Shown in pieces: positions 2,263 through 45,140 of a DNA stretch of 52,828 nucleotides (position 1 is its first letter; every line of letters begins with the position of its first letter). The notes under the pieces were generated by a model, which saw nothing but the letters and a program-made list of their open reading frames with translations, searched no databases and was not told the origin of the DNA. The stretch covers positions 1-52,828 of the forward strand of contig JBDTPD010000001.1 of assembly GCA_039932855.1 (NCBI GenBank), read 5' to 3'. Position numbers and translations under genes: made by a program. Source of the DNA: Chitinophagaceae bacterium (GTDB taxonomy: Bacteria; Bacteroidota; Bacteroidia; Chitinophagales; Chitinophagaceae).

Positions 2263-2293
2263 TTAATGGTTATACGCTGAAAAGGGAAGGAAG

Positions 2294-3532: not shown

Positions 3533-3544
3533 TCTCTTTCTTTT

Positions 3545-4433: not shown

Positions 4434-4790
4434 ATGAAAAAGAATCTGACAACAATCATAGCCACCCTTATCCTGGTATTTATTTCAGTTGCGGGTCATG
4501 CACAAGATGAACAAGTAAGTACACCAAAAGCAAAATGGATATCTGATAAAGGTTTTTGGGTGGTAGAAGGTAATGTAAACAATGCCTTAGAGCATACGCT
4601 CCATTTCTACAATAACAACAAAGTAGAAATTTATAAAGAAACAGTCTCAGGTGTTAAGCTTAAGCTGAATAAGCGCAAAACACTTATGCAAATGAAAAGC
4701 GTGTTGGAAAATGCAGTAATTGCATGGGAACAAAAACAACCCCTCAATGAGAATGGAAAATATTTTATCGCAGCCATTCAGAAACAGTAG
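4434..4790 (+). CDS. hypothetical secreted protein
   Basis: 118 aa with a signal peptide (…VFISVAGHAQ). No motif recognised. Confidence 0.5.
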   Translation: MKKNLTTIIATLILVFISVAGHAQDEQVSTPKAKWISDKGFWVVEGNVNNALEHTLHFYNNNKVEIYKETVSGVKLKLNKRKTLMQMKSVLENAVIAWEQKQPLNENGKYFIAAIQKQ

Positions 4791-4914
4791 GCAGTCTATC
4801 AGTGGGCAGTCGGCAGTCACAGGTTTCAATTATTTACTTTCATTAAGTGTTCAGACCAACAAGACCATAAATGATGTCAGGTACTGACTGCGAACTGATA
4901 GACTGCTGACTGAC
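4788..4914. repeat. imperfect inverted repeat of the 'gcagtcggcagtc' family
   Basis: 'ggcagtctatcagtgggcagtcggcagtcac' (about 4790-4820) faces 'ctgactgcgaactgatagactgctgactgac' (about 4885-4914). Related short motifs occur at 1822-1843 and 33763-33786. Confidence 0.6.
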
Positions 4915-5082
4915 AAACCGATCTTAAGCATACCTGGTTCAACCAGGAACCCCCTGTCCGGTTCTCCGGATGGGGCTTTTACTTTTAAGGCATTAAATTC
5001 TTTCGTCGACGAAAACCTGATTTTAAGCGACAATACCAGTCTCAGCTAAGAACTACCCTCTACAAGTTGTAATTTAGTTTAC

Positions 5083-6240: not shown

Positions 6241-6952
6241 TCAGCCCATCATAAAATGTCTTATCATCGATGATGAACCTCCGGCAAGGGACATCATCCG
6301 CCGCTATGCAGAACAGGTATCGTCATTAGAGATAATAGGTGAATATGGGAATGCAATTCAGGCCTTTGGTGCCTTACAGCAGCACTCAATTGATCTGTTA
6401 TTCTTAGACATACAGATGCCGCAGCTTACCGGAACTGATTTTATAAAAACACTGAGCAATCCTCCGAAAGTAATTTTCACCACTGCCTTTCCTGAATATG
6501 CGGTAGAAGGATATGAACTGGATGCAGTAGACTACCTGGTAAAACCTATCCGCTTTGAACGTTTTTTAAAAGCTATCAATAAAACATTTTCGACTACTTT
6601 AAGTAAACAAGCTGTTATCGCACCTGTTGTTGAAGAAAAAAAAGAAGAATCATTCGTTTACTTCCGGGCCGATCGCAAAATGGTAAAGGTGATGTTGGGT
6701 GACATCCTGTATATCGAAAGCATGAAAGACTATATAAAGATCGTAACAAAGCAGGGAGTTGTGATTACCAAGCAATCTATCAGTTCTGTTGAAGCAATGC
6801 TTCCCGAAAAAGAATTTGTCCGCGTTCACCGCTCTTATATTGTCTCGCTCAACAAGATCAAATCATTTACTACTGAATTAATGGAAGTAGAGAAAACAGA
6901 AATTCCTATTGGAAAACTCTATCGGAATGAAGTCTTAAAAATGATTGGATAA
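6233..6952 (+). CDS. LytTR-family response regulator
   Basis: 239 aa with a receiver domain ('LIIDDEPPA…DLLFLDIQMP') and a C-terminal LytTR DNA-binding domain ('ILYIESMKDYIKI…FVRVHRSYIV'). Confidence 0.9.
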   Translation: MHDQPIIKCLIIDDEPPARDIIRRYAEQVSSLEIIGEYGNAIQAFGALQQHSIDLLFLDIQMPQLTGTDFIKTLSNPPKVIFTTAFPEYAVEGYELDAVDYLVKPIRFERFLKAINKTFSTTLSKQAVIAPVVEEKKEESFVYFRADRKMVKVMLGDILYIESMKDYIKIVTKQGVVITKQSISSVEAMLPEKEFVRVHRSYIVSLNKIKSFTTELMEVEKTEIPIGKLYRNEVLKMIG

Positions 6953-6985
6953 AGTGGAAGTGTTTGCAGCCTATAAACGCTTTTT

Positions 6986-7092
6986 GACACAGAGAGCCAC
7001 AAAGAAGCCCAGAGTTTCTCAGAGTTCTTTTCAGTTACATATTGTTTACTGATCTCTGCGGTTCTCTGGGCTTCTTTGTGGCTCTCTGTGTC
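6986..7092. repeat. REP-like hairpin, 'cagagagccacaaagaag' family (copy 1)
   Basis: Perfect 29-nt arms at 6986-7014 ('gacacagagagccacaaagaagcccagag') and 7064-7092. The element lies between convergent genes. Confidence 0.85.
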
Positions 7093-7142
7093 GAAATCAA
7101 ACTATAAGCTGAAGGTTTTTACAACAACTATGCACCGTTGAT

Positions 7143-9488
7143 TTATTCTAAAATCCGCAGCTTCGCATAATTGAGCATGATCTTTTTCTCACCATTATGC
7201 TCAAACTTCACAGTAGCAATCGGATTATGCGCAGCGCCTTCCATTTTAATGACTTCACCAAATCCAAATTTCTGATGCTCTACTTTCTGACCGGCCTGCA
7301 GATTAGTAGTATCGCTGGCTTTGAAATCCTCAGAAGGCGTATGTTGTTTTAATGCTTGTATATTGACCTTGGGTGCTAAGTAAGTAGGCGTAGAAGATTG
7401 TTTGGACGGAGGCGCGCCATATCTTTTTTCCGCTTCTTTCACATCATTCGATCCATAACCTCCACGCATTCTGTCAAACGCAGAACCGGATGACCAGTTA
7501 CCCTGGTTCTTTGCTCCACCACCTGCAAAGCTGCGATCGAGATTATCGGCTGGTATTTCATCGATGAACCGGCTTGGTTCATTTTGAACAAGCGTTCCAA
7601 ACCGGTATCGTGAATTAGCATAAGTGATCCACAATTTTTTCTTCGCTCTCGTGATCACGACATAAAACAAGCGTCGCTCTTCTTCTAATTCCTCGCGTGT
7701 ATTAATGCTCATGGCATTGGGGAAAAGCATTTCTTCCAAACCAGCAGCGAATACAACTCCGAACTCCAATCCTTTTGCCGCGTGGATAGTCATTAATTTA
7801 ACAGTATCAGCATTTGGATCTTTCTGATCTGAATCGGTCAACAGGGTTATCTGTTGCAGATAAGCGCCAAGACTTTTATCAACTACTTCACCATCTTCAT
7901 TATCCGGACTTTCCACCCATTCTTTAATAGAGTTCAATAACTCCTGGATATTCTCATAACGTGCTAAGCCTTCTGTGCTTTTATCATTAAAAAGTTCCTT
8001 CGTGATATTTGTTTGTTTTCCTACATGCGATGCTACTTCATAGGCATTATGCTTTTGCAGCATGCTGGTAAAACTCCTTATCATCAATACAAAATCCTGC
8101 AGGACGGTCAATGTACCGGCACGGAAACCATATTGGTCTGCATGCTGCAGCACTTCCCACATGGAAATATCCTTTTCATTAGCAGCAAGCACCAGTTTAT
8201 CAATAGATGTTTTACCAATTCCTCTTACAGGGTAATTGATGATCCTTTTCAATGCTTCTTCATCTTTCGGATTTACCAACAGACGGAGGTAAGAAACCAG
8301 GTCCTTTACCTCTTTACGTTGATAGAAACTAATACCACCATACATAGTATAAGCAATACCCATCCGGCGAAGGGCTTCTTCAAACGCACGGCTTTGTGAA
8401 TTGGTGCGGTAAAGAATAGCAAAATCTCTATTGGAAAAATGATTACGTAGTTTTTGTTCCTGGATCGTATCGGCAACAAACTTTCCTTCTTCGTTATCAG
8501 TCATCGTCCGCACCAGCTTGATCTTTTCACCTTCTGCATTTTCAGTGAACAATACTTTTTCAATCTGGCTCTTATTATTTTTGATGACTTCATTGGCGAC
8601 GTTCAGGATACTTTTTGTACTGCGATAATTTTGTTCCAGCTTAACCACTTTTACATTATCATAATCCTTTTGAAACTGCAGGATGTTTTCAATGGTCGCT
8701 CCGCGGAAGCTATAAATACTTTGTGCATCATCTCCTACCACGCAGACATTCTCATGCATGGCGCCAAGTAATTTGATGATCTCGTACTGGGCAGGGTTTG
8801 TATCCTGGTACTCATCGATCAGGATGTATTTGAATTTGCGTTGGTATTTACTTAAAGCTTCCGGTTGTGTTTTCAGTAATTCGTAAAATTTAAGCAACAG
8901 GTCATCAAAATCCATAGCGCCATTTTTAGAACAGCGTTTTACATACGCATCATAGATCTGCGCAATAGCCGGGCGGTTAGCACGCATATCTTCCTGTTGC
9001 AGATAATAATCAGCGGCGTATGCTGCTGGTCCTACCAACGCGTTTTTTGCAGACGATATCCTGTTATATACTGTATTGGGTTTGTAATGCTTGTCATCCA
9101 GTTCCATTTCATTGATAACAGTCTTCACCACACTTTTGGCATCATCTGTATCATAGATCGTGAATTGATTAGGATAACCGATGCGGTGGGCTTCAGCACG
9201 AAGTATTCTTGCAAATACAGAGTGAAACGTACCGATATAAAGATTGCGGGCTTCATTATTTCCTAATATCCTTTCTACCCGCTCTTTCATTTCTTTCGCG
9301 GCCTTATTGGTAAAGGTTAGAGCCAGTATATTAAAGGAATCTACTCCGTTTGCCATCAGGTGCGCAATACGGGTAGTTAATACTTTTGTCTTACCGCTGC
9401 CGGCCCCGGCCACGATCATCAGGGGACCATTAATATGTAATACGGCCTCACGTTGTCTTTCGTTCAAATCCTTCAGATAGTCTTGCAT
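7143..9488 (-). CDS. UvrD/PcrA/Rep-family ATP-dependent DNA helicase
   Basis: 781 aa with Walker A 'AGAGSGKT' and the blocks 'DEYQDTN', 'QNYRST' and 'TIHAAKGLEF'. There is a C-terminal extension. Confidence 0.95.
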   Translation of the reverse strand: MQDYLKDLNERQREAVLHINGPLMIVAGAGSGKTKVLTTRIAHLMANGVDSFNILALTFTNKAAKEMKERVERILGNNEARNLYIGTFHSVFARILRAEAHRIGYPNQFTIYDTDDAKSVVKTVINEMELDDKHYKPNTVYNRISSAKNALVGPAAYAADYYLQQEDMRANRPAIAQIYDAYVKRCSKNGAMDFDDLLLKFYELLKTQPEALSKYQRKFKYILIDEYQDTNPAQYEIIKLLGAMHENVCVVGDDAQSIYSFRGATIENILQFQKDYDNVKVVKLEQNYRSTKSILNVANEVIKNNKSQIEKVLFTENAEGEKIKLVRTMTDNEEGKFVADTIQEQKLRNHFSNRDFAILYRTNSQSRAFEEALRRMGIAYTMYGGISFYQRKEVKDLVSYLRLLVNPKDEEALKRIINYPVRGIGKTSIDKLVLAANEKDISMWEVLQHADQYGFRAGTLTVLQDFVLMIRSFTSMLQKHNAYEVASHVGKQTNITKELFNDKSTEGLARYENIQELLNSIKEWVESPDNEDGEVVDKSLGAYLQQITLLTDSDQKDPNADTVKLMTIHAAKGLEFGVVFAAGLEEMLFPNAMSINTREELEEERRLFYVVITRAKKKLWITYANSRYRFGTLVQNEPSRFIDEIPADNLDRSFAGGGAKNQGNWSSGSAFDRMRGGYGSNDVKEAEKRYGAPPSKQSSTPTYLAPKVNIQALKQHTPSEDFKASDTTNLQAGQKVEHQKFGFGEVIKMEGAAHNPIATVKFEHNGEKKIMLNYAKLRILE

Positions 9489-10579: not shown

Positions 10580-11761
10580 ATGCATCCACGAAAATCCATT
10601 CTCGTAATTTTTGCCGGCCTCATTATCCTGGCTGGTTGTAAAAAACAAGATAACGCGCCGTCAAAAAGGAACACGGCCCCTGATGATTGTGTACAGGGTA
10701 GCGCTGTTGATAACGGAACTGTGATCGACGGAAAATATATCGTTGTGTACAAGAACACAGCTGTAAGTGCAAAAGGCATGAGCGCTGAACGATTAACAGA
10801 GATCAACCAGGATGCGTTATCCAGAAATAATATTCCGTCATCTGCATTGGATAAAAGTTTTGGGGGCGAACTGCCAGGATTTGTCGCCAGTTTATCAGAC
10901 GATGAATTGAGCAGGCTCAAACAAGATGTTTCCATTGAAGCTATAGAACCTGACAGGATCATTTCATTAAGCGAATGCTTTACCGTAGCGGAGCCGCGTT
11001 TGATCACCTGGAATATCAGTCGTGTTGGCTATGGTAATGGTATTGGCAAAAGAGCTTGGATCATCGATACAGGAATTGACTTTAATCACCCGGATCTGAC
11101 AGTAGATGCTTCTAAAAGCAAATCATTTATTTCAGGCGTTACTTCTGCCACCGATGAGAATGGACATGGTACTCACGTTGCCGGTATCATCGGGGCAAAG
11201 AATAATTCATTTGGTGTACTGGGTGTAGCATCCGGAGCAACACTTATTTCATTACGCGTATTGGATAAAGATGGTAAAGGAAGCGTTTCAAACATCATTC
11301 AGGCGCTTTCTTATGTAAGCGCTAATGCTTCTCCCGGTGATGTAGTAAATATGAGTGTTGGTGATGATGATGGTGTTTCAGATATTCTGGATCAGCAGGT
11401 AAAAAATGTAGCTGCCAAAGGAATTTACTTTGCCATTGCAGCCGGCAATGATCATAAACTTGCCAATACAACTTCACCGGCAAGAGCAAATGGTTCTACT
11501 ATTTATACAGTATCAGCTATTGACAGTCTTGATAATTTCGCCAGTTTTTCTAACTATGGTAATGATGTGGTTGATTATGCCGTGCCTGGCGTAAGAATAT
11601 TATCTACGTATATGGGCAATAAGTATGCGTACATGAGCGGAACATCGATGGCAGCGCCGCATATGGCTGGATTACTATTATTAAAAGGTGCAAACATCAG
11701 TACTTCTGGTGCAGCTAAGAATGATCCTGATGGAACGCCTGATCCGATAGCGCATTTTTGA
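10580..11761 (+). CDS. S8-family (subtilisin-like) serine peptidase, lipoprotein
   Basis: 393 aa with the lipobox 'LAGC', an inhibitor_I9-like propeptide and the catalytic triad blocks 'IDTGID', 'HGTHVAG' and 'GTSMAAPH'. Confidence 0.9.
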   Translation: MHPRKSILVIFAGLIILAGCKKQDNAPSKRNTAPDDCVQGSAVDNGTVIDGKYIVVYKNTAVSAKGMSAERLTEINQDALSRNNIPSSALDKSFGGELPGFVASLSDDELSRLKQDVSIEAIEPDRIISLSECFTVAEPRLITWNISRVGYGNGIGKRAWIIDTGIDFNHPDLTVDASKSKSFISGVTSATDENGHGTHVAGIIGAKNNSFGVLGVASGATLISLRVLDKDGKGSVSNIIQALSYVSANASPGDVVNMSVGDDDGVSDILDQQVKNVAAKGIYFAIAAGNDHKLANTTSPARANGSTIYTVSAIDSLDNFASFSNYGNDVVDYAVPGVRILSTYMGNKYAYMSGTSMAAPHMAGLLLLKGANISTSGAAKNDPDGTPDPIAHF

Positions 11762-12033
11762 ACACGGATGACACGGATTAAAAGGATGTTCACGGATTTT
11801 TTTATTTGGCAATAATCAAACTGACCTTTAGCCCATGGGTTGATGAAAATATAGAGCAGATAAATAAGATTAGCGGAGCGTCTCTTCCAATATATGATTG
11901 ATGAAATGCAGAACGTTCTAATAAAATTATAGCAGGACCTCTCTTCCAACCCATGGTTGAAACCATGGGCTAATTACAGCTTTATTAAGGGAGATTATCC
12001 GTGCAAATCCTTTAATCCGTGTTATCCGTGTTC
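11761..12033. repeat. nested inverted-repeat element, 'cacggat / cccatggttgaaaccatggg' family (copy 1), MITE/REP-like
   Basis: The outer arm 'aacacggatgacacggattaaaaggat..cacggat' pairs with 'atccgtgcaaatcctttaatccgtgttatccgtgtt'. There are inner 'cccatgg..' palindromes. The element fills the whole convergent intergenic gap. Confidence 0.8.
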
Positions 12034-12041
12034 CAAAAAAA

Positions 12042-13589
12042 TTAAATAGAATACAACGGTATATTAATGTATAAAGAAACGCCATTCTCCTCCTCCGCCT
12101 TATAATTATAATCATTACTAAGTGTCCTTACACGGTTAAGCATGCTTTGCAAACCAATACCGCCTGGCTTCTTCACTTTATCAGGATTAAAACCTTTTCC
12201 ATTATCAGATATTTTTACTTCAGCGTGGCGACTACCATAGCGGATGTATAAAGTGATATCGGTTGCTTCAGAATGCTTTTCACTATTATGAATAAATTCC
12301 TGGATGATGCGATAGAGATTGTTTGATACGTTGGGTAAAAATTCTTTTTCTTTCCCAAGCACTGTCAGGTTGTATTTTATTTTATCTACGCGGTTAAGCC
12401 GGCTGATCATGGCTTTTATTCCTTTCAGAAAACCACTGTTCAGCAGATCGACCGGCATCAGGTCATGCGAAACTTTACGGGCAATAGACAGCGTTTCCGC
12501 CACCAGTTCTTTTGTTTCCGTAATAAAATCACCAATAGCCGGATCATTTTCTTTTAGCATTTTCTGAATAGTATCGATAGAAAGATGAACGGTTGCTAAA
12601 TGCTGACAAACTCCATCATGCAGATCGGCCGCAATGCGATCCCTTTCTTTTACTTCTGCTTCGGCAATGGCATTGGAGACAAGTTGATTCACTTCTTTCA
12701 AACCGGTGATGTCCTGTACAATGAAAATAAGAGACGATGGTTTATTAGGGTATTCTACACGTTTTACGGTGGTATTGTAATAAATGATCTTCTTTTGTCT
12801 GCCTCCGGCTTTCATTTCAAAGTTCACTGCTTTGCCACTTTTTATCGCGAGTTCTATTTTTTGCTGTAACAGGTTATGGTTTTTCGCATAAAAAATGCCG
12901 GATACTTTTTCTCCGATACGTTTACGCTGGCTACCATTGATGTATTGAATAGTGCCATTGGTCGTCGCCTTAATGATCAGCACCGGCGCCGAATCAGTAA
13001 TAGAACGTAACTCTCTTTCTTTATTTAATACCTCATCTTCTTTTCTTTTTATTATGGAAATATCCTGTGTGGTACCGAAAATGATATCCTTATCGACATT
13101 TTTATTCATTCCGGAAAAAGTCGTCTGCAGTGTCTTCACTTTTCCGGAGCTGGTTTTTATCCTGTAAGTAATGGGATTATATTTTCCCTGCATTGCATTT
13201 TTAAATGCTTGTATTACGTCGGGGTAATCTTCTTCGAAAATATAATTGCATTCTTCATTTCCCATCAATGGTTCACAACCTTCCTTTGCTTCGAAAATAT
13301 CAAGGAGATGAGAGCTCCAGTTCATCTTCAGCGTTTTCCGGTTCAATTCAAAATAGCCGAGTTTGGCAACTGCTGATGCGAGTCGAAGCAATTCATTTCT
13401 CTTCAATACTAACTCAAGAGCGGAACGATTATTAAGGATTGATTTGTTTTTGCTACCGAACAAAGTATCGGCGGCAGCGAGGTGAGCAGCAGAAATAGTT
13501 TTTAATGGCCGTGAAACTGGCTTGGGGTGAATAGATTGTTTTTTAGACAATGTCTTCCCAGCCGGACCACTGGTGGTTCGGTTTTTCAT
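12042..13589 (-). CDS. PAS-domain sensor histidine kinase (HisKA_3 / NarL-partner type), cytoplasmic
   Basis: 515 aa with PAS-like repeats, the H-box 'AADLHDGVCQHL' and a C-terminal HATPase ('DNGKGF…GGIGLQSM'). No adjacent response regulator. Confidence 0.85.
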   Translation of the reverse strand: MKNRTTSGPAGKTLSKKQSIHPKPVSRPLKTISAAHLAAADTLFGSKNKSILNNRSALELVLKRNELLRLASAVAKLGYFELNRKTLKMNWSSHLLDIFEAKEGCEPLMGNEECNYIFEEDYPDVIQAFKNAMQGKYNPITYRIKTSSGKVKTLQTTFSGMNKNVDKDIIFGTTQDISIIKRKEDEVLNKERELRSITDSAPVLIIKATTNGTIQYINGSQRKRIGEKVSGIFYAKNHNLLQQKIELAIKSGKAVNFEMKAGGRQKKIIYYNTTVKRVEYPNKPSSLIFIVQDITGLKEVNQLVSNAIAEAEVKERDRIAADLHDGVCQHLATVHLSIDTIQKMLKENDPAIGDFITETKELVAETLSIARKVSHDLMPVDLLNSGFLKGIKAMISRLNRVDKIKYNLTVLGKEKEFLPNVSNNLYRIIQEFIHNSEKHSEATDITLYIRYGSRHAEVKISDNGKGFNPDKVKKPGGIGLQSMLNRVRTLSNDYNYKAEEENGVSLYINIPLYSI

Positions 13590-35204: not shown

Positions 35205-35252
35205 TCTTCTTTGTTATTTAAATACGTTAGTTAGGGTTGTTTATTGGATAAG

Positions 35253-35283
35253 CACCTTCGTGAAAGCGAAGGTGTTTTTTTGT
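35253..35283 (+). terminator. Rho-independent terminator at the left edge of the accessory block
   Basis: The stem is 'caccttcg tgaaag cgaaggtg', followed by a T9 run. Confidence 0.7.
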
Positions 35284-35396
35284 TAAAGTATGCATCTTTT
35301 GCTTCTAAAGATTTAATCTCAGTTATAAATAAGTGCCGGATTATTATAATATTCTCAAAATCCTTTTTAATTTGATCCACTAAACCTTAACCACCT

Positions 35397-37298
35397 ATGG
35401 GTATTTCATGGAAATGGGGTGCCGAGGAGAAACGAAAAGGAGATGAAGGATTCAATAATGCAGGCATTCTAACCTTTAGCAGTCATACGATTAATTCTTT
35501 TGTAAGAGAATTGTTTCAGAACTCCAATGACGCCAAGCAAAAAGGCGCAAAAAAAGTATCAATTAAAATTGAGCAAAAGAATATTGACAGAAGCGATATC
35601 CCGGAATTCAGAAGCTATCGTGATATTCTAGACGCTGTTGAAAAATCCCATCCTAAGCAAAAAAGATTTTATAAATCTGCTAATAGCCTTCTGAATAATA
35701 TCAGGATTCCTTTCCTGGTCTATTCAGATTATCAAACCATTGGTCTTACGGGTAAAGAAAGCGACAGCAATTCCAGTTTTATGGCTTGTGTCCTATCTGA
35801 GGGTATTTCCGCTAAAGAATCCGACACTGCAGGAGGTTCATATGGTATTGGAAAAAATGCAATCTACGGCTTATCAGCCTTGAGAACAGTGTTCTATTCA
35901 TCTATGAACACTTCGGAAAATTGCATATTTCAGGGTGTTGCTAAACTAGCTTCCTACAGGATGCATAAGGTCAATCACGAAGGAAGAATATATCTCGGAG
36001 AAGGTGAAGAAAGGTTATCTGTCAGAAAACAAAAAGACATTCCAAAAATATTCAAAAGAACAGAACCCGGCCTTTCGCAGTTTGTAATGGGAGTCGAAAT
36101 AAAGCCAGGGTGGCATATTGATTTTACTAAGGCAATACTAAGAAACTACTGGATGCTTCTAATGCAAGACGGTTTGGAAGTTGAATTGTTGGAAAGCGGT
36201 AAGTCTTTGATTACAATAAATTCAAAAAATATTGACACTTTGCTTAAGCAGTATTTTGAGAATTACTCAGACGAACATAGTTTATATCCAAAAGGCAATC
36301 CATATCTTTTCTATGAAGCTTTCAAGGAAGGTGAAAGAATAGAAATGGATATTCCTTTTATAGGAAAATGCAGTTTTTATTATAAGAATAGTGATAGAGG
36401 AGAAAATAACATTGCTTATCTAAGGAATGGAATGGTAATCTATAGTGATATCGAGAAACGGCTTATAGGAGCAACTGTCACTGGTGTTTTTAAATGTGAA
36501 TCCGATGCAGGCAATGAAATTCTAAGGACAATGGAACCACCCAAGCATGATAGTTTTGAGCCGGAAGTTCTTGAAAGTAATCATAATGATCTAACAAAAA
36601 TACAAGGGCAGAAAATTTTAAACTCAATAAAGAAAAATATCAGAGATACCATCAAAAGTCTGATCGAAAAATTTAAAGAAGTAACTGAGACACCAATTTT
36701 TTTAACAGAATTGTTTGAGGATTTACAAAAATCAATTGTTAGTGGAAACAAAGGAGCCAGAAAAAATGAAAGTAGTCAAACTGAAACTATTTATAGAAAA
36801 GCTGTTGAAGATGAAATAGCAATCTCCTTACATTCTGAACAGGAGAATTCTTATGTCAGTAATGTCAACGGTACTACGACAGGCCCTGGTGGAACACCCT
36901 TAAAAGAGAAGAAAAAGACGGATACTCCGAAAAATAAAGAGAAAAAGAATGTTGGTCCCGGAAACAGAACTGCCAAAAAGTATCCTATTAAAAGCAGGAT
37001 CTATTACTTACGTGAGAAAAATGGAAAGAATATTTATAAAGCAATCATTTCATCTGAGGCAGTACTTGGTGATACAGAACTCGGACTCGCTCAATATGCA
37101 GATTCCGGCTCAGATATAGCTTTTGAATTGTCTGGTATAACTGATGCAGATGGCAGCAAGATATCATTTAATGAAGTGAAGGATACCGATGGTCTGGTGT
37201 CAGAATATAAATTCTTCATTAATGTAAAAGAAGGAAAGAATATTTTTTTTCTAGAGGTTTATGACAATTATAAATCAGCATTCATAATAAACGGATAA
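35397..37298 (+). CDS. GHKL-superfamily (Hsp90/MORC/sacsin-like) ATPase with a large uncharacterised C-terminal region
   Basis: 633 aa. The Bergerat-fold motifs are the N-box 'RELFQNSNDA' (aa 37-46, ExxxNxxD), a degenerate G1 'SDYQTIGLTG' (aa 110-119) and the G2 'GGSYGIGKNA' (aa 146-155). A Lys-rich low-complexity linker lies at about aa 495-530. The remainder is unassigned. Confidence 0.6.
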   Translation: MGISWKWGAEEKRKGDEGFNNAGILTFSSHTINSFVRELFQNSNDAKQKGAKKVSIKIEQKNIDRSDIPEFRSYRDILDAVEKSHPKQKRFYKSANSLLNNIRIPFLVYSDYQTIGLTGKESDSNSSFMACVLSEGISAKESDTAGGSYGIGKNAIYGLSALRTVFYSSMNTSENCIFQGVAKLASYRMHKVNHEGRIYLGEGEERLSVRKQKDIPKIFKRTEPGLSQFVMGVEIKPGWHIDFTKAILRNYWMLLMQDGLEVELLESGKSLITINSKNIDTLLKQYFENYSDEHSLYPKGNPYLFYEAFKEGERIEMDIPFIGKCSFYYKNSDRGENNIAYLRNGMVIYSDIEKRLIGATVTGVFKCESDAGNEILRTMEPPKHDSFEPEVLESNHNDLTKIQGQKILNSIKKNIRDTIKSLIEKFKEVTETPIFLTELFEDLQKSIVSGNKGARKNESSQTETIYRKAVEDEIAISLHSEQENSYVSNVNGTTTGPGGTPLKEKKKTDTPKNKEKKNVGPGNRTAKKYPIKSRIYYLREKNGKNIYKAIISSEAVLGDTELGLAQYADSGSDIAFELSGITDADGSKISFNEVKDTDGLVSEYKFFINVKEGKNIFFLEVYDNYKSAFIING

Positions 37299-37302
37299 AA
37301 CT

Positions 37303-38148
37303 ATGATACCCGGTAATATATCAATGCCACATCCGGTCCTTGGGATAAATGGTGATATGAAAGAAGGAGCCTTCGATATATCTTTTGTAATTAAGGTTGA
37401 TAAATCAAGCAGAGAGTATGTTATTAAAGACATAAATGTTACGCTGACTAATCCATATATTGGACAGCTTTATAATGAAAAAAAATTACAGCTAATTCTT
37501 AAAATAGGCTGTACCCCTACTTACAAAACCTGGACTGTTGTTGACCCGATAGAAATCAGACTTCCCGAAAATGAAATTGATTTGTTGCTGGAAGTTGAGT
37601 CATTTCTTATTACTGCAGATAAGGTGGACGATTATTTCGACAAAACTTTTGGTGATGTTTTCGATGAAGATCATTTTCAGCTTGAAAAAGGAGATATTGT
37701 TGCTCTAACTGGTTCAAAGAAAGTAATGATTCCTAAAGAAAACGAAAAAGCATCATTGGGCAGCATCTTCAGATTTAAAAAAATCACACCGGAATCAGAT
37801 CATCAGGAGATGCATTTTGAATTTGACGAAGATCAAATCGTTATCAATTATCCTTCGGCAAACAGAGATTACGATCCCGTTACACTTCTATTTGATAAAA
37901 AACAAGGCATGCCCTATATGGCTCTTAGTTTATACATAATTCCTGCCCTGACAGAAGCATTCAGGATAAGAATGGATGAAGAAGAAAAAAGCTATAGCGA
38001 GAATAAGTGGTTTACAATCCTCGAATCGATTCTGCCAGATAGTGAAATGTCAGATGACGCTTTTATTAACGCACAACGAACGATTAAAACCGGTTTGCCA
38101 CTTAATATGGCATTCGATGAATTCATCAATAAAAATTTAAGGGGATGA
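37303..38148 (+). CDS. hypothetical protein (second gene of the GHKL operon)
   Basis: 281-aa acidic protein. It starts 4 nt after the stop of the ATPase gene. I recognise no family or catalytic motif. Confidence 0.5.
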   Translation: MIPGNISMPHPVLGINGDMKEGAFDISFVIKVDKSSREYVIKDINVTLTNPYIGQLYNEKKLQLILKIGCTPTYKTWTVVDPIEIRLPENEIDLLLEVESFLITADKVDDYFDKTFGDVFDEDHFQLEKGDIVALTGSKKVMIPKENEKASLGSIFRFKKITPESDHQEMHFEFDEDQIVINYPSANRDYDPVTLLFDKKQGMPYMALSLYIIPALTEAFRIRMDEEEKSYSENKWFTILESILPDSEMSDDAFINAQRTIKTGLPLNMAFDEFINKNLRG

Positions 38149-38870
38149 TGAAGGTTACTCTTTTCAATAATAATACCTGCCAGGAGCTTTTAAATTACAG
38201 GACAGACTCCTCTATCCGAGATTTATATGACAATGCTAATGAGTTTAATTACGAAAAAGCAGGTCTTATTGCGGATACAATTGATATTGACATTTCAAAA
38301 AAAGAGTTAGATCTGGGAACGAAACCCGGCGATGATCTTGATAATTCAATTAAAATTTACTCTGCATTGAAGCATCTGGATTTGGTTCAGGCAAATGATA
38401 AAAGATTATGGGTTACTTTAACCCACACTTTGTTTTATAAATATGCGATGGAACGATGGAGTTTAAGTGAGTCTTCCAGTAACGATGTTATTAAAGATAG
38501 ATTTCATTTTGAGGGAACAGGACTTAGGGCGAGAAATCAGAATAGCATAGCAAGATTATGGTGGGCGGCTAAAATCACTTATGATGAAAAAAGAAAAGAC
38601 CCATTTGAGTTGACTAAGTTGTTGTGGGAGAAGCAGGATCTTTATCAAAATTTGATTGACAGAAAATTTAGTACTTACAGAGGAACGTTGACTGGTTTTC
38701 TAAATTTTTATTCGGAGCATAAATATCTTGATCTAAAAAAGGATATGAGAAAACTTTTTAAAGGAATTAATGCTTTGGGTGGAGTAAAAATATTATCACT
38801 TTTAGAAGATTCTGATGTCCAGAAGGAGTTACACAGATTATGTAAATTTAATAAAATCAAGCTCAATTGA
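38145..38870 (+). CDS. hypothetical protein (third gene of the GHKL operon)
   Basis: 241 aa. Its ATG overlaps the upstream TGA (ATGA coupling). It has Trp-rich blocks 'KRLWVTLTH' and 'IARLWWAAKITYD'. No family recognised with confidence. Confidence 0.5.
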   Translation: MMKVTLFNNNTCQELLNYRTDSSIRDLYDNANEFNYEKAGLIADTIDIDISKKELDLGTKPGDDLDNSIKIYSALKHLDLVQANDKRLWVTLTHTLFYKYAMERWSLSESSSNDVIKDRFHFEGTGLRARNQNSIARLWWAAKITYDEKRKDPFELTKLLWEKQDLYQNLIDRKFSTYRGTLTGFLNFYSEHKYLDLKKDMRKLFKGINALGGVKILSLLEDSDVQKELHRLCKFNKIKLN

Positions 38871-38885
38871 TTAAGCAAATTTTTA

Positions 38886-40223
38886 CTACATCGAAGAAGT
38901 ATCCACCACTTCGTGTTGATAGTAAAGCGAAAAAAGGTTAATTGGCTTGGTACGAAATAGACTTCTGACTTTAACGCTCTGTTTTCTCTCCCCTTCAATT
39001 GCCATTTCTAATTTAATTCCAGGGTCATAAAAAACATTTCCCAGATGAATTTCATTGAGTAGTAATGAAACATCAGTATAGTTTCCTAAGATTATTTTAT
39101 TGCCATAGCAATATTGTTGGATTTGATTCGCTTGTCCTTTCTTGGATTTTGAAGGCACATAGCAAGCCTGCGGATGTTTTGCTTTCCAGTGTTCAATTAT
39201 AGAACTAAAAGACCAGATAGCCGCCGGAACTTTATTATCATCAATAAGGGCTACATATCCATTAGTGTTAACTATTTTTTTTCTCTCGTAATCAAATCCT
39301 TCAATTATCATTTTAAGTGAAGTGAGCTTATGAGAAACTTCATGCTTATGTGTTCCTCCAAAATTCATTCTCGATGGTCTTCCCTTTCGATCAGGATAAC
39401 CATATTTTCGAACAAAGGCTTCAGCTCCATTTTGGTGAAAATACCCGCCAGTTGGGCTGTGATCCATTAAGGTGATTGATTTTGAACCAAATTTGTTAAA
39501 ATCAGTAACATTGAACTGTTTTATTTCCCAGCCAAGAAAATCGGGGCCTGCAATCGCATTAGATGGAATATTTAATTCAGCTTCTAGTGTATAACCTCCG
39601 CAGTTCGTATGATTGCAGGGAATAAGAGCCCGATCGGCATTCAATCTTTTTGAAGTTATCCATCCAAGATTGTGAATTCTATTTAATTCGTTTAGAAGTA
39701 TCCCTTTACTATCTCTAAGTATTTGCCCTCTGGCAATTGTAATTACGGCAAAAACGCCATGCGAATCAAGCTTCTTTAAATTCAAAAATTCTTGTCCGAC
39801 TTCGCTTTCAAAAAGAGTAACAAACCCATAAATTTTATTTTGTTCACTTACTCCTAAAAATAAAATTCGATTTTCAATCCTAGCGGTAAAAAAATTTGAT
39901 GGGGCATTTCTACATCCTTTCAAAAATCCTGAGAATCTAACTTCGGGATAGTCGGGATATAAAATTAGTTGAGCGTAAGGAGCAATAAAAAGTCCGCCTT
40001 CCTCATTTATCCAGTAAAAATCTAATTTAGATTTAAAACTTTCTCTTTTCCTTTTTCCTTCTTCGTCTGTGGTGACATTGCTGGAAGGAAAAATGTTTAA
40101 TACATCAAAACTTTCACCAAAATAAATCTGATTTTTAGAATTATCATTCGGCGAAAGTTTTTTTACATACACCTTTTGACATCCTCTTTCTGAAAATATT
40201 TTAAGAAGATTTTTTAAATTCAT
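38886..40223 (-). CDS. putative type II restriction endonuclease (MutH/MvaI-BcnI-like D-x4-E-x-K core plus extra N-terminal domain)
   Basis: 445 aa, translationally coupled (ATGA) to the upstream m5C methyltransferase. The candidate PD-(D/E)XK-type motif is 'GPDFLGWEIKQ'. The N-terminal region of about 170 aa ('KKLSPNDNSKNQIYFG…') is unassigned. Confidence 0.55.
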   Translation of the reverse strand: MNLKNLLKIFSERGCQKVYVKKLSPNDNSKNQIYFGESFDVLNIFPSSNVTTDEEGKRKRESFKSKLDFYWINEEGGLFIAPYAQLILYPDYPEVRFSGFLKGCRNAPSNFFTARIENRILFLGVSEQNKIYGFVTLFESEVGQEFLNLKKLDSHGVFAVITIARGQILRDSKGILLNELNRIHNLGWITSKRLNADRALIPCNHTNCGGYTLEAELNIPSNAIAGPDFLGWEIKQFNVTDFNKFGSKSITLMDHSPTGGYFHQNGAEAFVRKYGYPDRKGRPSRMNFGGTHKHEVSHKLTSLKMIIEGFDYERKKIVNTNGYVALIDDNKVPAAIWSFSSIIEHWKAKHPQACYVPSKSKKGQANQIQQYCYGNKIILGNYTDVSLLLNEIHLGNVFYDPGIKLEMAIEGERKQSVKVRSLFRTKPINLFSLYYQHEVVDTSSM

Positions 40224-41473
40224 TTTCTTTTGGTTTCCAAAACTTCGACAATCTTTTCTCCAATAGCCTTTATTAAAGGCACGACTACAGAATTTCCAAA
40301 CTGTCTATAGCCCTGATTCATTGAAACAGCATTAACAATAAAATGATCGGGATATCCTTGCAATCTTGCTGACTCTCTTATCGAAAGCCTTCTGGGGGGT
40401 TTATTTTTCTGAGGAATTAATATTTCAGAACCATCCTTGTAATACCTGGCACTCATAGTTCTTGTAATGCCTTCAAGATCTACAAGTCCAAAGCCAAAAC
40501 CATTTCCTTTTTCTTTATGTTTCCTGGCATAATCCTGCAGATACTTCCATAGATGTTCTGTTAGTGTATATTTTGGATCAACCTTATTCTCGAGTATATC
40601 CTTTATTTTTTTTGTAGGTGTGGGCAGCACAGGAAATTCAAACTTCTCTTTGTTATGAAAAACTTTTGTATCAAAACCCACCATAAAAGTTCTTTCACGA
40701 TGCTGAGGAACGAAATGCTTTCCATTAAGAATCTTTGAATGAAAAGAATATCCAAGATCAATCAAGCTCTCCTTGATTATTCTAAAGGTGTTTCCTTTAT
40801 CGTGTGAGACGAGATTTTTTACATTTTCAAGAAAAAAAGCCTTCGGTCGATGTTTTTCCAGTATTTCAACAATATGAAAGAAAAGATTTCCCTGTTTTTC
40901 GTCTTCGAACCCATGTTTTCTTCCCAAGCTATTTTTTTTGCTTACACCTGCGATAGAAAATGGCTGACAAGGAAAGCCTCCACAAAGAAGATCAAATTTA
41001 TCAGGTATCCAATCCTTTGTTTCCTGTTTGGTAATATCACCAAATGGGATCTCTCCAAAGTTTGCATAATATGTTCTTTGCGCCATCTTATCCCATTCAG
41101 ACGTAAATACACATTCGCCCTGAAGTCTTTGCATTGCTATTCTAAATCCACCAATACCTGCAAAGAGGTCGATGAAGGTAAACTTTGCATTTGCTGGTGT
41201 AGGGAACACAACATAGTCATCAAATTTGATAATCTGCTGTAGCGCTTCTTCGGCAACTTTTGAATTCAGCTCACCATTTAAATATCCTTCGAGTAAGTCT
41301 GTTGAATATTCAATAGCATATTTTTTAAGCTTCTTATCCTTTGTTCTCAGATAATGGCTTATTACTGCAGCCCGATAATTATCCGGTCCAAACAGTGCTA
41401 TTTTCCAAAGTTTTTCTGATACCAGATGTAATTTGGTACTTAAAAGTGCGGGGCTTTTCTCTGCGATCATCAT
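40220..41473 (-). CDS. DNA (cytosine-5)-methyltransferase
   Basis: 417 aa with the canonical m5C motifs. These are I 'FAGIGGF', IV 'GGFPCQPFS', VI 'FFLENVKNL', VIII 'QHRERTFMVG', IX 'RESARLQGYP' and X 'QFGNSVVVP'. Confidence 0.95.
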   Translation of the reverse strand: MMIAEKSPALLSTKLHLVSEKLWKIALFGPDNYRAAVISHYLRTKDKKLKKYAIEYSTDLLEGYLNGELNSKVAEEALQQIIKFDDYVVFPTPANAKFTFIDLFAGIGGFRIAMQRLQGECVFTSEWDKMAQRTYYANFGEIPFGDITKQETKDWIPDKFDLLCGGFPCQPFSIAGVSKKNSLGRKHGFEDEKQGNLFFHIVEILEKHRPKAFFLENVKNLVSHDKGNTFRIIKESLIDLGYSFHSKILNGKHFVPQHRERTFMVGFDTKVFHNKEKFEFPVLPTPTKKIKDILENKVDPKYTLTEHLWKYLQDYARKHKEKGNGFGFGLVDLEGITRTMSARYYKDGSEILIPQKNKPPRRLSIRESARLQGYPDHFIVNAVSMNQGYRQFGNSVVVPLIKAIGEKIVEVLETKRK

Positions 41474-41709
41474 TTGCTTCTCTTTTTTCCGTTGAATAAA
41501 TCCGTATTGAAAAAATCCTTAAGACTTGTTTCTAATCCGTTGCATATAATTTTTGTCAGTGATTCCACTGATGCGTTTCTTTTGCCGTTTTCGATATGAT
41601 TCATGAATGTTCTGTCAACTTCCGCTTTCCAGGCTACGGCCTCCTGTGTGAGGTTTTGTTGTGTGCGGAGTTCTTTAATGCGCAAACCAATCTTGGCCTT
41701 AATATCCAT
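41470..41709 (-). CDS. XRE-family HTH protein, likely R-M controller (C) protein
   Basis: 79 aa with the HTH 'LTQEAVAWKAEVDRTFMNHIENGKRN'. It overlaps the methyltransferase start by 4 nt and sits directly downstream of a GACT/AGTC palindrome. Confidence 0.7.
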   Translation of the reverse strand: MDIKAKIGLRIKELRTQQNLTQEAVAWKAEVDRTFMNHIENGKRNASVESLTKIICNGLETSLKDFFNTDLFNGKKRSK

Positions 41710-41727
41710 AAGACAATAGTATTTTAT

Positions 41728-41758
41728 GTGACTTAAAGTACATTGGTGTTTAAGTCAC
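41728..41758. promoter_or_regulatory. candidate C-box operator
   Basis: Perfect 10-bp inverted arms 'GTGACTTAAA'…'TTTAAGTCAC' are separated by 11 bp. They lie 19 bp upstream of the C-protein start, in the 73-bp gap after vsr. Confidence 0.45.
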
Positions 41759-41782
41759 GTTGGATAAATCAATAACAAGTAT

Positions 41783-42196
41783 TCAGGAGAGTTTTTTCAA
41801 CAACCCGGAGAGGGTTTTTTCTGCATTGGAAGGCTTTAAATCACACTCCCATAACGTAAAAATTCGCCAATTACCTTTTTCTAATGCAAGGATCGCTTTT
41901 TCATCATTGGCTTTATTACCATTTATCTTATTCAACCACCATTCCGTCCTCGTCTTCGGAACCACATAATACCTACACCCTTCATGCCCATGCCAGAAGC
42001 ATCCATGAATAAAAATCACGGTCTTGTATTTCGGCAACACCAGGTCTGGTTTACCCGGCAACGTTTTGTCATGAAGTTTATACCGGAATCCCTGTGCATG
42101 TAAAAATCTTCTTACCAGCATTTCTGGTTTTGTATCCTTGGCGCGGATACGGGACATGTTATAACTACGGGTTTTCTTGTCATGCACATCTGCCAT
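41783..42196 (-). CDS. vsr: very short patch repair endonuclease
   Basis: 137 aa with Vsr blocks 'RSYNMSRIRAKDTKPE', 'LPGKPDLVLPKYKTVIFIHGCFWHGH' and 'WRIFTLWEC'. Confidence 0.9.
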   Translation of the reverse strand: MADVHDKKTRSYNMSRIRAKDTKPEMLVRRFLHAQGFRYKLHDKTLPGKPDLVLPKYKTVIFIHGCFWHGHEGCRYYVVPKTRTEWWLNKINGNKANDEKAILALEKGNWRIFTLWECDLKPSNAEKTLSGLLKKLS

Positions 42197-42454: not shown

Positions 42455-43087
42455 ATGGGAAAATTCATCAATGGGATCAATGGCCCTGTTCAGGGCAAAG
42501 TGGGCACTATTATCGGATCCTCCTGGAAAGGCATTCCGTATGTAAAATCAAAACATAAAAAGCGTACAAAAAATGTCAGTGAAAAAGAGGAAGCCAATCG
42601 TACCAAATTTGCCAGCGCTCATAGCTGGCTCCGTCCACTGTTGTCGTTTGTACGTACCGGATTCAAAGGATACAGCGTAAAGGCAGAAGGTTTTAATGCA
42701 GCAAAGTCGTACCTGTTGCGAAACGCTGTTGAAGAGTCACCGGATGGTTTTAGGATCATGCCTTCTTTGATGAAACTAAGTGTTGGCGATCTGCCATTGC
42801 CTGCAACTATGAGCGTTACTAAAATGGCTGCAGATAAATTGCAATTCACCTGGGAGGTAGCACAAGCAAGCGGAGCACATGGCCGCGACCAGGTAATGAT
42901 GATGGCCTATGATACCGATAACCAAAAAGCTTTCTTTGTAACGAATGGTCTGTTCAGAAGTGCAGGAGCAGATATACTAACGGTCTATGGCAAAACAGGA
43001 TCAACATACCATTTGTATGCAGCGTTTGTGGCGGTAGACAGGAGCAGGCAATCAGATAGTATGTATCTGGGAGAGATCACCATGTAA
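42455..43087 (+). CDS. hypothetical protein (resembles a Bacteroidota DUF, possibly DUF6266)
   Basis: 210 aa. The N-terminus 'GKFINGINGPVQGKVGTIIGSSWKGIPYVKSK' is a pattern I recall from an uncharacterised Bacteroidota family. The assignment is from memory only. Confidence 0.4.
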   Translation: MGKFINGINGPVQGKVGTIIGSSWKGIPYVKSKHKKRTKNVSEKEEANRTKFASAHSWLRPLLSFVRTGFKGYSVKAEGFNAAKSYLLRNAVEESPDGFRIMPSLMKLSVGDLPLPATMSVTKMAADKLQFTWEVAQASGAHGRDQVMMMAYDTDNQKAFFVTNGLFRSAGADILTVYGKTGSTYHLYAAFVAVDRSRQSDSMYLGEITM

Positions 43088-43153: not shown

Positions 43154-43513
43154 TTAATATGCCGCAATTAATGTTTCAGCAGGGATACTTAGTTTTTGAT
43201 GAAGTTCCCGAATCATAGCAAGAGATAATTTCCTCCTGCCACTAAGTATTTCAGATTTGCGACTGCGGCCACCGAGTATTCTGATCAATTCCTTTTCATC
43301 TACACCCATTTGTTCCAACCTGAACTTGATAGCTTCAATAGGATGTGGTGGCGGAACAGGGTAATGTTTTCTTTCATATGCTTCCACCAGAATAGAAAGT
43401 ATTTCTAGTTCATCAGAAAGCTTACTACCTTTTTTCAAATCTTTCTGCATAAGATTATATACCCGTTCTACTGCGGTATCATATTCTTTTTTTGTTCTAA
43501 TTGGTTTTAACAT
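43154..43513 (-). CDS. higA: HigA-type antitoxin (HTH, XRE-like)
   Basis: It begins 'MLKPIRTKKEYDTAVERV…' and has a C-terminal HTH region. I chose ATG 43513 as the start. It overlaps the HigB stop by 17 nt. Confidence 0.7.
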   Translation of the reverse strand: MLKPIRTKKEYDTAVERVYNLMQKDLKKGSKLSDELEILSILVEAYERKHYPVPPPHPIEAIKFRLEQMGVDEKELIRILGGRSRKSEILSGRRKLSLAMIRELHQKLSIPAETLIAAY

Positions 43514-43808
43514 ACGTAATCTTTTTTGAATCAATTAAATCATACTCTTTATGTGTTCCGATCCAAACGATAAAAATGATTTGTAACTCGTATTCTATAT
43601 CAACAATCAACCGGTGTTTATTACCATGAATATTAAAAACAACACGTTTATCGCCAATCACGGATGCATTTCCAAATTGGGCTTTTAGCTCATTATGATT
43701 TTTCCATTCTGCCTGATATGCTTCTTCATACCATACCAGCAGTGACTGTTCGGCCTCCTTTCTCTTTTTTCCATACAACTTCAGTGTCTTAACAACAATC
43801 ACCCTCAT
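43497..43808 (-). CDS. higB: HigB-type (RelE-fold) mRNA interferase toxin
   Basis: The protein is about 103 aa from ATG 43808. 'MRVIVVKTL…W…A.W.N..ELK..F..ASVIG.KRVVFNI.GNK.RLIV.I.Y…V.I..IGTH.EYD' matches the HigB_toxin family layout. Confidence 0.75.
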   Translation of the reverse strand: MRVIVVKTLKLYGKKRKEAEQSLLVWYEEAYQAEWKNHNELKAQFGNASVIGDKRVVFNIHGNKHRLIVDIEYELQIIFIVWIGTHKEYDLIDSKKITYVKTN

Positions 43809-44016
43809 GGTAAAGATATTAAAATGTTCCCAAATTGGGAACACATTTGAGTAATTTAATAATGATTTATCTATCTAATTTAGACGTAAGGGATCACTTT
43901 CATTAAGTTAAATCCTCTGTATTTTCATCATAATTTTCCTGTTTTTTCAGATTGAACCATTCCGCCTTCCCCCAATTCTTATTACATTTATCCCACACTT
44001 AAAAAACCCTCACTGC

Positions 44017-45071: not shown

Positions 45072-45140
45072 GCTAGTGGGGAATAGCTAGTGGCGAGTGG
45101 GAAGAAACCCCCTACTCGCCACTAGCCATTTCCCACTAGC
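45072..45140. repeat. hairpin ('gctagtggg.aat.gctagtggcgagt')
   Basis: 27-nt arms at 45072-45098 and 45114-45140 with 2 mismatches. The element lies between convergent genes. Confidence 0.8.

Follow-up and report, generated by a model that had tools for sequence, protein, structure and literature searches.

The role of prokaryotic MORC-like (paraMORC) ATPases in restriction-modification (R-M) loci has been a question since 2008, and the answer bears on how the eukaryotic proteins MORC and SMCHD1 couple DNA methylation to chromatin compaction. The locus described here is a three-gene operon at positions 35397–38870 of a 52,828-nucleotide stretch from a Chitinophagaceae bacterium (GCA_039932855.1, contig JBDTPD010000001.1, positions 1–52,828, forward strand), which at its full length is referred to below as the window. 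Its genes, designated g1, g2, and g3 and together the trio, encode a predicted ATPase that fits the published description of one paraMORC family, and two partner proteins. The presence of a GHKL ATPase in an R-M island will not surprise a specialist; the value of the trio is the handle that it offers on paraMORC function. The analysis identifies the trio as a complete copy of a catalogued phage defense candidate, PDC-M33, and indicates that this cassette keeps company across phyla with C5-cytosine DNA methyltransferases (MTases).

Several described systems are close to this locus. The portion of Iyer, Abhiman & Aravind (2008; PMC2292703) devoted to these proteins defines the paraMORC2 family by a GHKL domain followed by an S5 domain with an ExxxH motif, places it in R-M neighborhoods with mostly cytosine methylases and the very-short-patch repair endonuclease Vsr, describes a sporadic distribution mainly in Gram-positives and cyanobacteria, and proposes that paraMORCs clamp or loop DNA in an ATP-dependent manner. 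A paraMORC3-type Shedu protein, VcSduA, has been validated by experiment as anti-phage; its N-terminal GHKL ATPase is essential and is proposed to control access to the effector (Adams et al., 2025; PMC12137116). Although g1 is also a GHKL protein, VcSduA combines the ATPase and a DUF4263 PD-(D/E)xK nuclease in one polypeptide, whereas the trio has no such domain and two separate partners, and VcSduA/paraMORC3 was rejected as the identity of the trio because of this different architecture. Bellieny-Rabelo et al. (2021; PMC8011034) describe a HEF_HK/Response_reg_2 pair that is preceded by a C5 MTase gene and directly followed by vsr. This combination of a GHKL protein with a small partner, often in type II R-M regions, is analogous to the dcm-trio-vsr arrangement described below, but the families differ: in Pfam, g1 matches neither HATPase_c_3 nor HEF_HK, and g2 and g3 do not match Response_reg_2. 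PDC-M33 itself is one of 145 phage defense candidates derived from gene cassettes embedded within known defense systems (Payne et al., 2024; bioRxiv 10.1101/2024.01.29.577857); supplementary file 8 of that work gives it as CAS_00129, composed of FAM_02818>>FAM_02838>>FAM_01881, with a count of 98.

Profile models from PADLOC-DB v2.0.0, Pfam, and NCBIfam were run on the three proteins. The PADLOC models PDC-M33A, PDC-M33B, and PDC-M33C match g1 (E = 9.1e-86, residues 1–587, for a model of 627 positions), g2 (E = 2.4e-33), and g3 (E = 2.1e-46), in each case over nearly the full length, and the window genes have the order A>>B>>C, adjacent and on the same strand, of PDC-M33. The three open reading frames (ORFs) lie tightly packed on the plus strand and encode 633 residues (g1, 35397–37298), 281 residues (g2, 37303–38148), and 241 residues (g3, 38145–38870); the g1–g2 junction, TAA-AACT-ATG, leaves a gap of 4 nt, and g2 and g3 share an ATGA start/stop overlap, exactly the arrangement given in the initial annotation of this DNA. 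When all named systems in PADLOC-DB v2.0.0 were scanned at E ≤ 1, only the PDC-M33 models matched the trio; models for BREX, DISARM, Dnd/Ssp/Pbe, Zorya, Druantia, Septu, Gabija, Lamassu, Wadjet, Mza, MADS, and Abi systems gave no match. The initial annotation was thus correct that no named system accounts for the trio, but its description of the trio as undescribed does not hold, as all three proteins map to a catalogued candidate and the ATPase fits a family published in 2008. On all criteria open to testing the trio belongs to PDC-M33, and hence to an already known kind, with a predicted anti-phage activity. The sole Pfam match in the trio is that of g3 to DUF6339 (E = 1e-48), which gives a family to a protein previously considered unassignable. 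Full-text literature searches yielded no paper on PDC-M33 or DUF6339. The PDC-M33 model has three genes and includes neither an MTase/Vsr linkage nor the small gene g0 described below. New beyond PADLOC and the literature found are the quantified local linkage to C5 MTase and Vsr; an optional, swappable restriction endonuclease (REase) beside the MTase; a confidently folded predicted structure for DUF6339 with no PDB relative; and g0 as a fourth small gene.

The distribution of the trio was determined by a profile scan of one genome per species, which gave 248 confirmed g1 relatives, with 80 loci kept (L001–L080); a single-sequence genome scan with g1 had found nothing, whereas this alignment-based scan succeeded. 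The genes g2 and g3 were located by iterative hidden Markov model searches of six-frame ORFs of the 80 loci. Relatives of g1 are mostly from Bacillota, and are also found in Bacteroidota, Alpha- and Gammaproteobacteria, Planctomycetota, Verrucomicrobiota, Cyanobacteria, Spirochaetota, Fusobacteriota, Nitrospinota, Thermodesulfobacteriota, and Chloroflexota. The g1-g2-g3 order and strand, with g2 and g3 immediately following g1, are kept in 68 of the 69 assessable loci, spread over more than 10 phyla. Between pairs of loci, g1 identity and g3 identity have a correlation of 0.66, so that the trio evolves as one unit. Conservation in 68 independent genomes also means that its members are real genes and not chance ORFs. 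The earlier proposal of a co-translated operon is supported. Of the 80 loci, 12 have no g3; 11 of these are cut by a contig end. In the other, a Balneolaceae locus (L004, 10098–12783), g1 and g2 are each split into two ORFs, g3 is missing, and Vsr and MTase genes are still adjacent, so that it appears to be a decaying cassette.

The trio is widely transferred and laterally mobile among defense genes. It occurs on 27 plasmids, including those of L. lactis, Ligilactobacillus, Priestia, and haloarchaea, and the copy on L. lactis pS127 is flanked by an AlwI-family R-M locus on one side and AbiGI/GII on the other. Its defense neighbors comprise type I and type IV R-M, GmrSD/HEC-06, AIPR, pAgo, and AbiG, which bears out the defense-island context suggested earlier. 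The L. lactis plasmid trio likewise matches the PDC-M33 models nearly full length and no Abi model among the PADLOC models at E ≤ 1. AbiR of L. lactis pKR223, a multi-component, methylase-dependent system interleaved with the LlaKR2I R/M genes, is a possible counterpart of the trio. A copy of the cassette is also present in the temperate Clostridium innocuum phage NatCom_9291 (L090, PV036421.1), where g0-g1-g2-g3 occupy 1907–8274 directly after the integrase; its g3 encodes 354 residues, and a DNA methyltransferase gene lies about 1 kb downstream.

When the genes flanking the 80 loci are clustered, the two dominant families are homologues of the C5 MTase (48 loci) and of the Vsr (23 loci) encoded in the window, and Vsr is always accompanied by the MTase. 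Among the 52 fully flanked loci, defined by a complete trio with at least 3 kb on both sides, a C5 MTase is found within 10 kb in 35, at a distance of up to 2.5 kb in 30 and of 2.5–10 kb in only 5; the association is therefore local and not island-wide. In most cases the MTase gene directly precedes g1 and has the same orientation; in L005, L009, L012, L013, L028, L043, and L055 it runs up to or into the start of g1, and in L009, L028, and L055 there is a single operon, dcm-g1-g2-g3-vsr. Convergent layouts like that of the window, with no REase in between, are found in L006, L016, and L032. N6 (type I) methylases account for only 2 of about 200 flanking genes scanned. The trio is thus preferentially and tightly linked to C5 methylases. 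In the window itself the C5 MTase gene (40220–41473; Pfam, 4e-90) belongs to a minus-strand block together with genes for an MvaI/BcnI-family type II REase (38886–40223; 445 residues, with the catalytic domain recognized by Pfam at residues 177–434), a 79-residue HTH_3 controller-type protein (C-protein; 41470–41709), and Vsr (41783–42196; Pfam, 4e-36). The REase gene converges with g3 at a distance of 15 nt. This R-M/vsr operon had been treated as a mere neighbor of the trio; because the companion conserved across phyla is a C5 MTase, in many loci together with Vsr, the functional unit in the window is likely 35397–42196 rather than 35397–38870.

The nuclease in this block is the variable part. 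Recognizable REases are few among the 107 genes that border 35 contiguous MTase-trio blocks (three HNH, two MutH-like, one HpaII, and a few matches to REase_II models). Within the clade of the window, L081 reproduces its layout with a REase of another family (trio, EcoRII-C at 11466–12695, MTase, HTH, and Vsr), L082 and L083 combine the trio with an HTH-fused MTase, Vsr, and EcoRII-C (L082:13895–15121), and L084 has the trio with MTase, HTH, and Vsr between housekeeping genes and no REase at all in the locus. A relative in Marinobacter (L088, 27% identity in g1) has the operon dcm-vsr-g1-g2-g3-EcoRII-C, with EcoRII-C at 11532–12758. No homologue of the window MvaI/BcnI REase was found in the 80 loci, and the 176-residue N-terminal extension of this enzyme matches no assigned domain and has no similarity to EcoRII. 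Since the REase differs or is missing among relatives, the conserved partner is the methylase, with or without Vsr and the C-protein, and the nuclease is optional and interchangeable. The trio itself is matched by no REase model in Pfam, PADLOC, or NCBIfam and is therefore not a classical type II R-M system.

The HTH_3 gene occupies the same position in L081 and L084 as in the window, and this C-protein bears on the suggestion, very improbable in our judgment, that the trio is a regulatory or signaling module controlling the linked R-M genes. Such a role would follow by analogy from the HEF_HK/Response_reg_2 pair, a published paraMORC-related pair that shares the C5 MTase/Vsr context and was read as resembling a two-component system (PMC8011034), and it would be compatible with the lack of a catalytic signature in g2 and g3. 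However, the R-M block already has its dedicated controller, the Pfam and NCBIfam models detect no HTH, receiver, or kinase-dimerization domain in g1–g3, and the trio also occurs where there are no R-M genes to control.

The reading favored here is that the complete PDC-M33 cassette is functionally coupled to the adjacent C5 MTase block (REase-MTase-C-Vsr, 38886–42196), a proposal to which we give an even chance of being correct. A number of findings weigh against it. The 10-kb neighborhood of about one third of the fully flanked loci lacks a C5 MTase. In three Selenomonadaceae/Quinella loci (L027, 8922–14705; L034; L042) the trio, with an extended g3 of 330 residues, is inserted alone between queA and tgt with no methylase nearby, and L087 has a PLD nuclease-family gene in place of the C5 MTase. 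The identities of MTase and g1 correlate weakly (Spearman 0.14, reached by 10 of 2000 Mantel permutations), and although close cassettes usually have the same MTase, there is a clear swap in L041/L060; the methylase therefore behaves like an exchangeable partner and not like a co-evolving subunit, and a largely invariant trio is hard to square with methylases of differing specificities. The presence of the MTase in the window could be explained entirely by the conventional REase encoded next to it. Pfam, PADLOC, NCBIfam, and PDB searches detect neither a nuclease nor another effector domain in g1, g2, or g3 (for g2 by sequence only). Finally, the window shows no depletion of CCWGG and CCSGG, which MvaI/BcnI/EcoRII-type enzymes probably recognize; both are over-represented (CCWGG, 97 observed and 55 expected from shuffles, with 0 of 100 shuffles reaching 97; CCSGG, 55 observed and 37 expected), and the site counts are for this reason uninformative on specificity.

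Some of these observations are what one would predict if the trio were instead an autonomous defense system, for example an abortive-infection or ATP-dependent sensor-effector system, that acts independently of any methylase and is parked by R-M loci or serves as a back-up when R-M is inhibited. The loci with no nearby C5 MTase, including the clean queA/tgt insertions, and an exchangeable MTase that co-diverges poorly with g1 are consistent with autonomy, as are the diversity of the neighboring defense genes and the definition of PDC systems by embedding in other defense systems. We nevertheless consider this explanation rather doubtful, though worth keeping in view. The companion is specifically a C5 MTase, N6 MTases being nearly absent from the flanks; most of these genes lie no more than 2.5 kb away, as a rule in the orientation of the trio and in many cases with translational coupling to g1; and dcm-trio-vsr operons recur in distant phyla, a pattern that random co-location in islands does not predict. 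In five Bacillaceae loci (L046, L053, L068, L071, and L074) the trio is found beside genes directed at 5-methylcytosine (5mC) and not beside a methylase: SauUSI-like type IV REases (PLD + ResIII + DUF3427) and a NUDIX_4 protein, with an EVE-HNH protein in L074.

Conservation in g1 was evaluated in an alignment of 109 homologues and in a second set of 84 genome homologues. The Bergerat motifs reported in the initial annotation are present, and they are invariant or nearly so across the family. In motif I (N-box, E38-LFQNSN-D45, 35508–35531; this and all following g1 coordinates are on the plus strand) residues E38, Q41, and D45 are invariant in the 109 sequences and at least 92% conserved in the 84 genome homologues, and N42 and S43 are invariant or nearly so across the 109. 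In motif II (G1, D111-YQTIGLT-G119, 35727–35753) D111, T114, G116, and G119 are at least 94% conserved. In motif III (G2, G146-GSYGIG-K153, 35832–35855) G147, G150, G152, and K153 are invariant in the 109 sequences, and the whole pattern G146-G147-S148-x-G150-I-G152-K153 is invariant or nearly so; this motif lies in the ATP-lid region, where the model is of low confidence, the lid (residues 141–151) having a predicted local distance difference test score (pLDDT) below 50.

An AlphaFold2 (AF2) model of g1 based on the 109-homologue alignment has a mean pLDDT of 82.5. It consists of a GHKL domain (residues 1–255, approximate), an S5/transducer-like domain assigned from secondary structure and Foldseek (approximately residues 256–395, 36162–36581), two long helices forming a stalk after the transducer (residues 401–448, 36597–36740), a disordered Lys/Gly-rich linker with pLDDT below 50 (residues 450–527, 36744–36977), and a C-terminal beta-sandwich with pLDDT of 82–95 (residues 531–632, 36987–37292). 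The S5 domain contains the invariant residue R343 and, at its C-terminal end just past the last helix, the ExxxH motif E380-P-P-K-H384 (36534–36548), with E380 and H384 invariant in the 109-sequence alignment and 96% conserved in the 84 sequences. The stalk may be analogous to the transducer stalk of Topo VI-B, the linker varies in length and composition across the family, and the sandwich has weak Foldseek similarity to CBM/chitin-binding-type sandwiches (E ∼1e-2). The initial annotation considered everything after the ATP-binding fold unassignable apart from noting a Lys-rich linker and a C-terminal module; the linker is real, as a disordered segment, and the module is modeled as a beta-sandwich, but the S5/transducer domain is recognizable by Foldseek.

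The best Foldseek matches of the g1 model in the PDB are Topo VI-B (2.5e-9), the SMCHD1 ATPase module (1e-6), the MutL N-terminal domains (1e-6 to 8e-5), and GyrB (4e-6), and the alignments, of 350–470 columns, cover GHKL and transducer of the MutL N-terminal domain, SMCHD1, and GyrB. These matches indicate a competent ATP-binding fold, on which the earlier proposal depended. Judged by modeled fold and motifs, g1 is a genuine GHKL ATPase of the MutL/MORC/Topo VI-B class, and its ATPase activity is predicted. No Pfam HATPase_c-type or MORC model matches it. Membership in the Hsp90/sacsin group was rejected, as g1 reaches only 18.6 bits with the NCBIfam model of the sacsin N-terminus, which has a cut-off of 50, and so was MORC proper, for which there is no curated-model match; profile-versus-PDB comparison gives MutL with no better than E = 0.14. 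As far as the paraMORC2 section of Iyer, Abhiman & Aravind (2008) describes that family, g1 fits each of its elements: both have an N-terminal GHKL domain with intact ATP motifs, an S5 domain with ExxxH at its C-terminal end, cytosine methylases and Vsr as neighbors, and a sporadic distribution with many Gram-positive and some cyanobacterial members. The assignment is thus made by published description rather than by sequence comparison. As partners, that section stresses superfamily II helicases and RE-fold nucleases, and it does not describe g2 or g3 (DUF6339).

The GHKL-transducer fold that g1 has in common with MutL, Topo VI-B, and MORC/SMCHD1 (Foldseek, 2.5e-9 to 8e-5) belongs in those proteins to ATP-gated, dimerizing DNA clamps that hand over to separate nucleases (MutH, Vsr, or Topo VI-A). 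Sequence identity to g1 is only about 10%, the C-terminal half of g1, comprising stalk, basic linker, and beta-sandwich, is different, and the trio has neither the C-terminal endonuclease domain of MutL nor a Toprim/Spo11 partner. The resemblance of g1 to the MutL N-terminal ATPase raises the possibility that the trio is a DNA-repair accessory of Dcm/Vsr, a MutL-like complex that would recruit or stimulate Vsr or other repair enzymes at the T:G mismatches that arise from deamination of 5mC and so limit the mutational cost of the C5 methylase. E. coli MutL is reported to stimulate Vsr, as cited in the relevant part of Iyer, Abhiman & Aravind (2008; PMC2292703), Vsr is found in 23 of the 80 loci, sometimes immediately after g3, and UDG, NUDIX_4, and MutH-family genes recur nearby. 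In the remaining 57 loci, however, no Vsr gene is close by, and many loci also lack an MTase; a mismatch-recognition (MutS-like) component is missing; copies of the cassette on plasmids and in a temperate phage have Abi and R-M genes as neighbors; and its sporadic, laterally transferred distribution is typical of conflict systems. A repair role is accordingly judged improbable.

The most likely role of the trio is that of a DNA clamp driven by ATP and coupled to C5 methylation. In such a module g1 would, as expected from its ATPase class, dimerize when it binds ATP and in this form serve as a clamp for capturing or looping DNA; its basic, disordered linker may aid DNA binding, and the C-terminal sandwich or the stalk may dock the partners. 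Strict co-occurrence and co-divergence suggest that g2 and g3 are obligate subunits of the g1 complex, and, as a catalytic signature is missing from both, their most likely task is to recognize the target or a partner, a role in which the conserved Trp/Tyr/His/Arg/Asn surface of g3 could take part. The gene linkage suggests that the C5 methyltransferase marks self DNA and that DNA without this mark is the target of the complex. Where a type II nuclease is encoded alongside (MvaI/BcnI-family here, EcoRII-C in relatives), the complex would work through it; elsewhere it would rely on an unrecognized activity, possibly seated in the invariant ExxxH of g1, or on non-nucleolytic blocking. Vsr would accompany the methylase and repair deaminated 5mC. 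The initial annotation pictured g1 as a sensor or clamp acting with an unrecognized effector; that picture may still be right, although no effector was found in g1–g3. Read in this way the cassette is like BREX and DISARM in having a linked methyltransferase that marks self, a multi-protein ATPase complex, and no obvious nuclease; the likeness is conceptual only, as PADLOC finds no homologous component, and the trio-linked methylase is a small, exchangeable C5 enzyme whereas BREX and DISARM use PglX or DrmMI.

A bolder form of this proposal, which we put forward as tentative and probably wrong, is that PDC-M33 with its C5 MTase constitutes a distinct class of methylation-keyed restriction that needs no canonical nuclease. 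The g1 clamp with g2 and DUF6339 would then sense missing 5mC, foreign DNA would be stopped by a new catalytic site at ExxxH or by ATP-driven entrapment, and the type II nuclease of some loci would be an optional add-on. The cassette is compact (3.5 kb, or 6.8 kb with the methylase block) and widespread, and g1 offers clear mutational targets in E38, N42, R343, E380, and H384. If the coupling to the methylase is functional, bacterial immunity would gain a new restriction logic together with two new protein folds; otherwise the trio is one more catalogued candidate.

The partner proteins g2 and g3 have no recognizable enzymatic domain in Pfam, PADLOC, or NCBIfam, as the initial annotation had also concluded, and the conserved residues of g1–g3 show no PD-(D/E)xK, HNH, PLD, or GIY-YIG pattern (g2 by sequence only). 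Searches of Pfam, NCBIfam, and the PDB reveal no relative of g2 outside its own family, which comprises at least 1,675 clusters at 50% identity (HMMER, E ≤ 1e-3); among the best 150 HMMER matches there are no fusions, all being standalone proteins of about 270–300 residues. Conserved features of g2 are an N-terminal P-[HY]-P-V-L motif, D18, C70, T73, G130, P214, and W236, positions that, judged from the alignment only, form no nuclease-like constellation. The public gene call for g2 starts at an internal Met and gives 263 residues; the 281-residue form starting at 37303 is favored because homologues of 279–283 residues align with it from residue 1 and PHPVL is conserved.

The AF2 model of g3 is mainly helical and of high confidence (pLDDT 93.3, predicted template modeling score 0.89). 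Foldseek comparison of this model with the PDB and BFVD gives no structural relative (best E = 2; template modeling score < 0.2 in the PDB). Residues N67, A83, W89, H94, Y100, R104, W139, W140, and N209 of g3 are conserved. In some clades g3 has C-terminal extensions, in which Pfam recognizes no domain; the idea that an extended g3 substitutes for a missing MTase was rejected as unsupported (Fisher p = 0.26). Sequence and profile searches of the PDB with g1, g2, g3, and g0 give nothing significant, and matches to ferritin, Ig-domain, and designed-helical-repeat structures were dismissed as chance or compositional.

The additional gene g0 encodes a helical protein of about 70–77 residues with invariant R10 and F11 and the motifs CAN and YEY, and in 35 of the 80 genome loci it precedes g1 in the same orientation, with a spacing of 0–30 nt. 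Further copies, on the same strand as g1, are at L082:7758–7988, L084:7764–7997, L086:7756–7989, L087:7760–7996, and, in the phage, L090:1907–2131. An MTase is nearby in 17 of 22 loci with g0 compared with 13 of 30 loci without it (Fisher p = 0.02). No g0 homologue was found in any frame of the window, including 35205–35396, and the AT-rich leader of about 120 nt that precedes g1 (35278–35396, plus strand), a putative promoter region, is too short for the gene of about 77 codons found ahead of g1 in relatives.

In the window, housekeeping genes lie upstream of the trio region, and a strong terminator-like hairpin with a 12-bp stem and a T-run (35250–35277, plus strand) at the 3′ end of the upstream GEVED-domain gene sets that gene apart from the operon. 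The G+C content is 0.33–0.36 over approximately 36.0–41.0 kb and about 0.40 elsewhere in the window, in agreement with the AT-richer block noted initially, and this tract is common to the trio and the convergent REase and MTase genes. A search of its edges for mobile-element boundaries found no tRNA gene and no convincing flanking repeats. Just past the R-M block is a DUF6266 gene (42455–43087, plus strand), which may be part of the same mobile island; it recurs in the related loci L082 (15899–16537) and L083 (8220–8858). The R-M/vsr and HigB neighbors named in the initial annotation could all be identified, HigB at 43497–43844 (minus strand). Overlapping the HigB gene is a 126-residue ORF (43154–43534, minus strand) that has no Pfam match and presumably encodes a HigA-like antitoxin; this pair lies inside a second patch of low G+C content (∼0.35). 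Farther along, a G+C-rich inverted repeat of 30 nt with 90% complementarity and a 9-nt loop (45072–45140) is situated between an ORF ending at 45066 and a MacB/FtsX-type permease gene ending at 45140, and is probably a bidirectional terminator.

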